From assembly GCF_013167455.1 (NCBI RefSeq), contig NZ_CP038328.1: DNA of 64,000 bases; one strand, written 5' to 3'. The position numbers and the translations under genes are program-made. Origin of the DNA: Escherichia coli O157:H7. Its GTDB lineage: Bacteria > Pseudomonadota > Gammaproteobacteria > Enterobacterales > Enterobacteriaceae. Below, one piece after another: positions 60,501 through 60,883 of the stretch. Position 1 is the first letter of the stretch. Each line of letters begins with the position of its first letter. Under the pieces are notes generated by a model. It worked only from the letters and a program-made list of their open reading frames with translations. It had not been told where the DNA came from and did no database searches.

Positions 60501-60647
60501 TTATTGCTGCGCTTTCGTTGCTGCACCAGAAATCGCGTTACCGCCATCAGAAATGTCTTCACCAACGCCACGCGTGGTGTTGCAGGCAGTTAATACTGTT
60601 GAAAGCACCAGAACAGAAAAGATCGCTGCAATTGTCTTCTTCACCAT
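60501..60647 (-). CDS. ecnB: entericidin B lipoprotein (48 aa)
   Basis: Hand-translated minus-strand [51 protein letters not shown]; lipobox LTAC; too short for the ORF track. Confidence 0.8.
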
Positions 60648-60757
60648 AACGTCTTCCTTTTAGGTAATGTTATTTATGTTTGCCTATAGCAAATTAATAA
60701 TAGACAACATCGCCAAAAATGATGGAAATCTGATGATTTTTCGGAAGAGAAGAAAAA

Positions 60758-60883
60758 TTAGCTGGCAGCGCGGGAGATGGAGTTGCCGAGATGTTTGATG
60801 TCTTCGCCGAAACCGCGAGCGGTGTTACAGCCCGTGAGCAGCGTGCTGGCAAGCAAAACAAGAACGATAAGGCGTTTCATCAT
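60758..60883 (-). CDS. ecnA: entericidin A lipoprotein (41 aa)
   Basis: Hand-translated minus-strand [44 protein letters not shown]; lipobox LTGC; paralogue of ecnB. Confidence 0.8.

Follow-up and report, generated by a model that had tools for sequence, protein, structure and literature searches.

The two small open reading frames (ORFs) that lie on the minus strand between sugE (gdx) and efp, in the 64-kb stretch of Escherichia coli O157:H7 DNA analysed here (hereafter the window), are with near certainty the chromosomal ecnA and ecnB genes of E. coli, a tandem of paralogous genes for small lipoproteins in their O157:H7-type allele. Our explanation of the locus as a whole, namely the ecnA/ecnB lipoprotein genes together with a regulated ecnB, appears very probable. 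The genes concerned are as follows.

60758..60883, minus strand: ecnA coding sequence, 41 aa (ORF translation, NF007319, PF08085, RefSeq ecnA, identity with K-12 b4410)
60501..60647, minus strand: ecnB coding sequence, 48 aa (ORF translation, NF007487, PF08085, RefSeq, identity with K-12 b4411)
60008-60325, minus strand: sugE/gdx, SMR transporter, 105 aa (RefSeq, NCBIfam)
60935-61501, minus strand: efp, the neighbour of ecnA

The first-pass annotation had claimed two micro-ORFs of 48 and 41 aa at 60501-60647 and 60758-60883, and the ORF listing combined with direct translation returned exactly these lengths: both run from ATG to TAA, and the minus-strand frames are clean, without internal stop codons or frameshifts. 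The lipoboxes that it had described, LTAC in the 48-aa ORF and LTGC in the 41-aa ORF, can be read in the sequence, as can its common core C-N-T-x-R-G-x-G-E-D-I in both ORFs; the location between gdx and efp is also correct. The proposed identity with entericidins B and A is borne out by the NCBIfam equivalog models, Pfam, K-12 identity and RefSeq, which all agree, and on alignment the two proteins equal K-12 b4411 and b4410 residue for residue. Its remark that both genes escape the ORF track through a length cutoff is plausible, 41 and 48 aa being below the 60-aa default of the ORF lister.

The assignment of each gene to its family member rests on NCBIfam equivalog models with curated cut-offs. 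EcnA scores 114.9 bits with NF007319, "lipoprotein antitoxin entericidin A" (cut-off 86), EcnB scores 121.9 bits with NF007487, "lipoprotein toxin entericidin B" (cut-off 94), and each scores far lower on the model of its paralogue (46.5 and 44.5 bits), which makes the A/B assignment unambiguous. Both proteins also pass the gathering score of the Entericidin family PF08085 (23.3), with 30.2 bits for EcnB and 26.4 bits for EcnA, and the two products are 55% identical to each other over 44 residues (E = 4e-14). Several E. coli O157:H7 chromosomes match the 701 bases from 60300 to 61000 with 100% identity, and in one such chromosome the RefSeq annotation places ecnA and ecnB at these very positions; a search with the same segment found the locus in 5425 of 5426 complete E. 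coli genomes. None of our results contradicts the identity.

Nothing is unusual at this locus, and ecnA and ecnB are already known genes, described in 1998 and annotated in RefSeq; the entericidin locus of E. coli K-12 was reportedly described by Bishop et al. (1998, J Mol Biol 280:583). What the finding teaches is a matter of procedure: real and highly expressed genes, which virtually every E. coli genome contains, drop out of a six-frame track once a length cutoff is applied. Public data hold similar cases. An intact 43-aa lipoprotein ORF, ecnA, lies at about 2200-2350 of the Klebsiella oxytoca contig and was missed by the public gene caller, and many EcnB entries in databases are 59-82 aa long owing to spurious upstream start codons.

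Both precursors match the lipoprotein signal-peptide pattern [LVI][ASTVI][GAS]C and are built alike, with a basic N-terminus (MMKR in EcnA, MVKK in EcnB) followed by a hydrophobic stretch and then the lipobox:

60838..60827, minus strand: EcnA lipobox L16-T17-G18-C19; signal peptide residues 1-18, mature peptide 23 aa
60593..60582, minus strand: EcnB lipobox L19-T20-A21-C22; signal peptide residues 1-21, mature peptide 27 aa

The core in its family form, C-N-T-x-R/K-G-x-G-E/Q-D-I, is present in both mature peptides, and residues C22, N23, T24, G27, G29, D31, I32, G36, I39 and A42 are invariant across an alignment of 21 EcnA/EcnB sequences drawn from many genera. A six-frame motif scan of all 64 kb returned two core sites only, those of ecnA and ecnB, and no further entericidin-like ORF was found in the window by the six-frame scan. 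Computationally, mature EcnA and EcnB both have an amphipathic alpha-helical pattern: the helical hydrophobic moment is 0.587 for EcnA against a shuffle mean of 0.207 (fraction of shuffles at or above the observed value, 0), and 0.413 for EcnB against 0.157 (fraction 0.0015). AlphaFold2 models the 48-aa EcnB precursor as one continuous helix spanning residues 2-47 (mean pLDDT 83.9, and 76-79 across the mature part), a model that agrees loosely with the amphipathic helix of the family. A search for solved structures of entericidin relatives found none.

The cysteine of a lipobox is expected to undergo diacylglyceryl modification, cleavage by signal peptidase II and N-acylation through the Lgt/LspA/Lnt pathway, and by the +2 rule the presence of Asn, not Asp, after this cysteine predicts Lol-dependent transfer to the outer membrane. 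For EcnA and EcnB the sequences predict both lipid modification via Lgt/LspA/Lnt and outer-membrane sorting, the latter in keeping with EcnB homologues reported in outer-membrane vesicles (PMC7296081). Lipidation of EcnB at Cys22 is asserted in UniProt "by curation", and EcnB is among the E. coli small proteins most often detected by mass spectrometry (PMC12529367).

We compared the window with the orthologous loci of Salmonella enterica, K. oxytoca, Cronobacter sakazakii and Citrobacter youngae. All four retain the two small ORFs with their lipoboxes and the core motif, and the tandem ecnA-ecnB stands between efp and sugE in the window, in the O157:H7 RefSeq chromosome, in K-12 and in Salmonella, K. 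oxytoca, Cronobacter and Citrobacter. Relative to the window, dN/dS estimated by the Nei-Gojobori method ranges from 0.02 to 0.11 for ecnB and from 0.08 to 0.17 for ecnA (the comparison of ecnA with K. oxytoca alone yielded none), while the proportion of synonymous differences from the four other genera lies between 0.5 and 0.9, near saturation. Both genes are intact and under strong purifying selection. Within E. coli, a strain with 96.9% DNA identity at the locus encodes the same EcnB and an EcnA that differs by a single residue.

The closest reference, K-12 MG1655, shares with the window the identical proteins b4410 (EcnA) and b4411 (EcnB), the gene order epmB, efp-ecnA-ecnB-sugE(gdx), blc-ampC, the 110-nt spacer, the promoter core and the terminator. 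It differs by 13 nucleotides in the 1494 nt from efp to sugE, among them a single synonymous change in ecnA, another in ecnB and one spacer change at 60726, and by nothing of substance. Salmonella, Citrobacter and Cronobacter resemble the window in having the tandem downstream of efp with the same lipoboxes, core, -10 element and Shine-Dalgarno sequence, but carry an extra, divergent gene for a GerE/LuxR-type regulator between ecnB and sugE, which we take to be ecnR. This gene encodes a GerE/LuxR-family protein of about 200 aa (Salmonella 2678-3265, Cronobacter 2688-3293, Citrobacter 2720-3319, each in the coordinates of its own locus), and no GerE-family regulator gene lies between ecnB and sugE in the window or in K. 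oxytoca.

The spacer between ecnA and ecnB measures 110 nt with 30% G+C. From this spacer to the region beyond the ecnB stop codon, the following expression signals can be assigned to ecnB, some of them putatively.

60694..60704, minus strand: putative extended -10 of sigma-S (sigma-38) type, TCTATTATTAA
60683..60690, minus strand: -10-like GCTATAGG in the initially transcribed region, putative sigma-38-dependent pause site
60653..60659, minus strand: Shine-Dalgarno sequence AAGGAAG, 5 nt upstream of the ATG, its AAGGA core kept in five genera
60616..60646, minus strand: predicted MicA pairing site, starting at the second base of the start codon and reaching about codon 11 (RNAduplex)
60458..60495, minus strand: intrinsic terminator, a 12-bp stem at 60495..60468 followed by TGTTTTTTCT (fold)

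The consensus of sigma-S extended -10 elements is TCTATACTTAA, which TCTATTATTAA matches closely. A generic scan gave no sigma-70 promoter in either spacer flanking the ecn genes, and for lack of a spacer match in that scan the ecnB promoter was read by eye against the sigma-S consensus. Its core is identical to that of K-12; across all five genera, TTGTCTAT..TTA and AAGGA stay constant in an otherwise drifting spacer. In vitro, the K-12 promoter ecnB P is transcribed by the sigma-38 holoenzyme and poorly by the sigma-70 holoenzyme (PMC5389655), with which the missing sigma-70 match in the ecnA-ecnB spacer fits well. This promoter also displays a sigma-38-dependent promoter-proximal pause, whose site overlaps the site of the OmpR repressor (PMC5389655); we infer that the published pause falls on GCTATAGG, and our placement of the start, the pause and the OmpR site in window coordinates is to be read as putative. 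Judged at the level of sequence, ecnB would possess in this AT-rich spacer an RpoS-dependent, OmpR-repressed promoter of its own.

A further layer may act on the messenger. The sequence of MicA, a sigma-E-dependent sRNA, was verified with Rfam (RF00078, 83.9 bits, adjoining luxS), and its 5' linear domain (nt 1-28) is predicted to pair with ecnB at 60646..60616 with -24.2 kcal/mol in RNAduplex, a value that none of 500 shuffled targets equalled (-12.5 +/- 2.9 kcal/mol). In vivo, MicA represses the ecnB mRNA (PMC3551931). The terminator that closes the gene folds with -21.4 kcal/mol (z = -4.7). Both RpoS-linked expression of ecnB and the abundance of its product have been reported (PMC12529367). 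According to the literature, ecnB is transcribed in an RpoS-dependent manner in stationary phase, repressed by OmpR and lowered by MicA, and we regard this regulation as likely.

The signals in front of ecnA are of another kind. Ribosome-binding sites, which the first-pass annotation had suggested looking for upstream of each gene, proved strong for ecnB (AAGGAAG, 5 nt before the ATG) and weak for ecnA, where only AGG/GAG is found.

60890..60892, minus strand: weak Shine-Dalgarno-like AGG, 6 nt upstream of the ecnA ATG (direct reading)
60898..60931, minus strand: G+C-rich hairpin between the efp stop codon and ecnA (fold)

The Shine-Dalgarno sequence of ecnA is weak or variable in the other genera as well, and the gene has a second in-frame ATG at 60880. 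It begins 51 nt downstream of efp, and the intervening hairpin (-22.6 kcal/mol, z = -2.8) recurs at this position in five genera, 6 of its 11 pairs showing compensatory changes; it lacks a proper U-tract in E. coli and has a good one in Salmonella and Citrobacter. This hairpin is probably either a leaky terminator of efp or an mRNA-stabilising structure, and ecnA may be reached partly by read-through from efp.

On the other side of the pair, sugE/gdx is preceded by elements of its own, and the lipocalin gene blc and epmB lie farther out, beyond sugE/gdx and efp.

60343-60389, minus strand: guanidine-II riboswitch (mini-ykkC) in the sugE/gdx leader (Rfam RF01068, 49.3 bits, gathering 32)
60408-60435, minus strand: candidate sugE/gdx promoter TTGAAA-16-CAAAAT with TG extension (sigma-70 scan)

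The riboswitch, a known element of the guanidinium exporter gene, has the ACGR-loop hairpins GCAGGACGACCTGC and GGGGACGGCCCC, and its linker differs between the window and K-12 at 60366. The candidate promoter is the only sigma-70-like match in 60250-61050 (shuffled sequence gave a mean of 1.1) and is located between the ecnB terminator and the riboswitch, close to both; its position hints that it might serve sugE/gdx. We also considered a 155-aa ORF with a GTG start (60008..60475, minus strand) as a long form of sugE and rejected it: it crosses the riboswitch and reaches the ecnB terminator, and since RefSeq and NCBIfam support the 105-aa sugE, it is to be viewed as an artefactual 5' extension.

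Eleven of the 5425 matched E. coli genomes cover less than 80% of the locus. The one of these that was inspected, UPEC129 (NZ_CP071522.1), carries a single deletion of 501 bp with 7-nt microhomology, equivalent to about 60399-60899 of the window, which removes ecnA, ecnB, the ecnB terminator and the candidate sugE promoter and leaves the efp hairpin abutting the sugE riboswitch at the junction (locus 2945-3045). The deletion of both genes shows that the pair is dispensable; it says nothing on the loss of a single gene. Among the genomes compared, ecnA and ecnB are co-inherited, both being present in five genera and lost together in this one natural loss inspected.

That both frames might stand open by accident in intergenic DNA, and not be genes at all, is an idea invited by their small size (41 and 48 codons) and by the many overlapping ORFs of 20-60 aa in this stretch, but the evidence speaks against it. 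Both proteins exceed curated HMM cut-offs, dN/dS is 0.02-0.17 while synonymous change is near saturation, the lipobox and core motif are kept in five genera, EcnB peptides have been seen by mass spectrometry in many studies (PMC12529367) and Northern blots show the ecnB mRNA (PMC3551931). On the HMM cut-offs, dN/dS and mass-spectrometry detection we rejected the accidental reading, whose probability we consider vanishingly small. What the two lipoproteins do is a separate matter. A bacteriolytic role for EcnB and an antidote role for EcnA are the published and annotated functions, which a sequence cannot show. PMC7296081 and PMC5105897 cite Bishop et al. 1998 for the finding that EcnB is bacteriolytic when overproduced and that ecnA counteracts it in cis; the labels "toxin" for EcnB and "antidote" for EcnA would stem from this lysis upon overproduction and this protection in cis. 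We hold the chances to be evenly balanced that toxin and antidote are the true physiological roles, the evidence for the label being mixed. The label is explicitly questioned in PMC7296081, where it is noted that the ecnA deletion is viable in the Keio collection, that many other Proteobacteria have an ecnB-like gene without ecnA, and that Atu8019 of Agrobacterium tumefaciens is surface-exposed and enriched in vesicles, has a function in vesicle docking and causes neither lysis nor pores. In growing cultures in minimal medium, EcnB amounts to about 70,000 copies per cell (PMC12529367), and such numbers without lysis argue against a toxin mechanism. Inhibition of LolCDE leads to sigma-S-linked induction of ecnB and not of ecnA (PMC5105897), and the ecnA and ecnB genes of O157:H7 respond independently of each other in bovine faeces. 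The viable ecnA deletion, the non-lytic Atu8019, the induction of ecnB alone and this separate regulation all argue against a toxin/antidote pair, as does the weak ribosome-binding site of ecnA, which would be odd for an antidote that has to match an abundant toxin.

It is tempting to consider that EcnA and EcnB are real entericidins that do not form a toxin-antitoxin system, and would instead be abundant small lipoproteins of the outer membrane or of vesicles, induced by sigma-S and envelope stress, with a structural, adhesive or envelope-homeostasis role, the lysis being an artefact of overproducing an amphipathic lipopeptide. Our estimate for this proposal falls somewhat short of an even chance. 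Besides the viable knockout, the vesicle-docking Atu8019, the copy number, the induction of ecnB alone under Lol inhibition and the weak Shine-Dalgarno sequence of ecnA, it is favoured by the presence of EcnB homologues in vesicles of several pathogens (PMC7296081), by the repression of ecnB by MicA alongside mRNAs of outer-membrane proteins (PMC3551931) and by the Asn read directly at +2, which by the +2 rule predicts outer-membrane sorting. It has to contend with the lysis and in-cis protection that PMC7296081 cites from Bishop et al. 1998, with a secreted EcnB homologue of Enterobacter C6-6, cited in the same paper as bacteriolytic against Flavobacterium, and with the tandem pairing kept in all five enterobacterial genera, which suggests that the two proteins work jointly. 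The Enterobacter case has a second reading, in which EcnB would be a released, bacteriocin-like lipopeptide acting chiefly between bacteria and EcnA the immunity factor of the producer. Schubiger et al. 2015, as cited in PMC7296081, report that Enterobacter sp. C6-6 requires its entericidin to antagonise Flavobacterium psychrophilum, vesicles would offer a delivery route (PMC7296081), and a toxin next to a small paralogue resembles a bacteriocin/immunity pair. However, the locus belongs to the core genome (5425 of 5426) and EcnB is nearly invariant, whereas bacteriocins typically diversify and vary between strains, and no dedicated gene for export or release is found in the locus; we regard a role as a weapon as improbable. 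Should the pair prove to be conserved, highly abundant outer-membrane or vesicle lipopeptides under the control of RpoS, OmpR and MicA, with a part in envelope or vesicle physiology, a 28-year-old annotation of "programmed cell death" would be wrong. The matter of lysis and antidote concerns the label used in the field and not the window.

The pair recalls a classical toxin-antitoxin system (type II, e.g., HicAB) in that two small genes are adjacent, one reportedly harmful when overexpressed and the other protective. Unlike such a system, it encodes two paralogous lipoproteins that are both exported; ecnB, the "toxin" gene, is driven by a stress-regulated promoter of its own that lies downstream of ecnA, the "antitoxin" gene; no evidence points to addiction or to a labile antitoxin (cells lacking ecnA are viable; PMC7296081); and the genes are syntenic members of the core genome and not mobile. 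Atu8019 likewise contains an entericidin domain and is a small lipoprotein, with a mature peptide of just 32 aa, but it is encoded by a single gene without an ecnA partner, is non-lytic and functions in vesicle docking (PMC7296081).

Some minor observations accompany these results. The locus is duplicated in a few E. coli genomes, and three copies are on plasmids. The boundary of published ampC amplicons often lies in or adjoining ecnB (PMC12625342), and such amplicons could be the source of the duplicated and plasmid-borne ecn loci. Elsewhere in the window, a whole-window Rfam scan returned three tandem tRNA genes with identical scores and a spacing of about 111 nt (45100-45395, minus strand) and an RpsF leader (RF02893, 110.1 bits; 12634-12718, minus strand), which are ordinary E. 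coli features.
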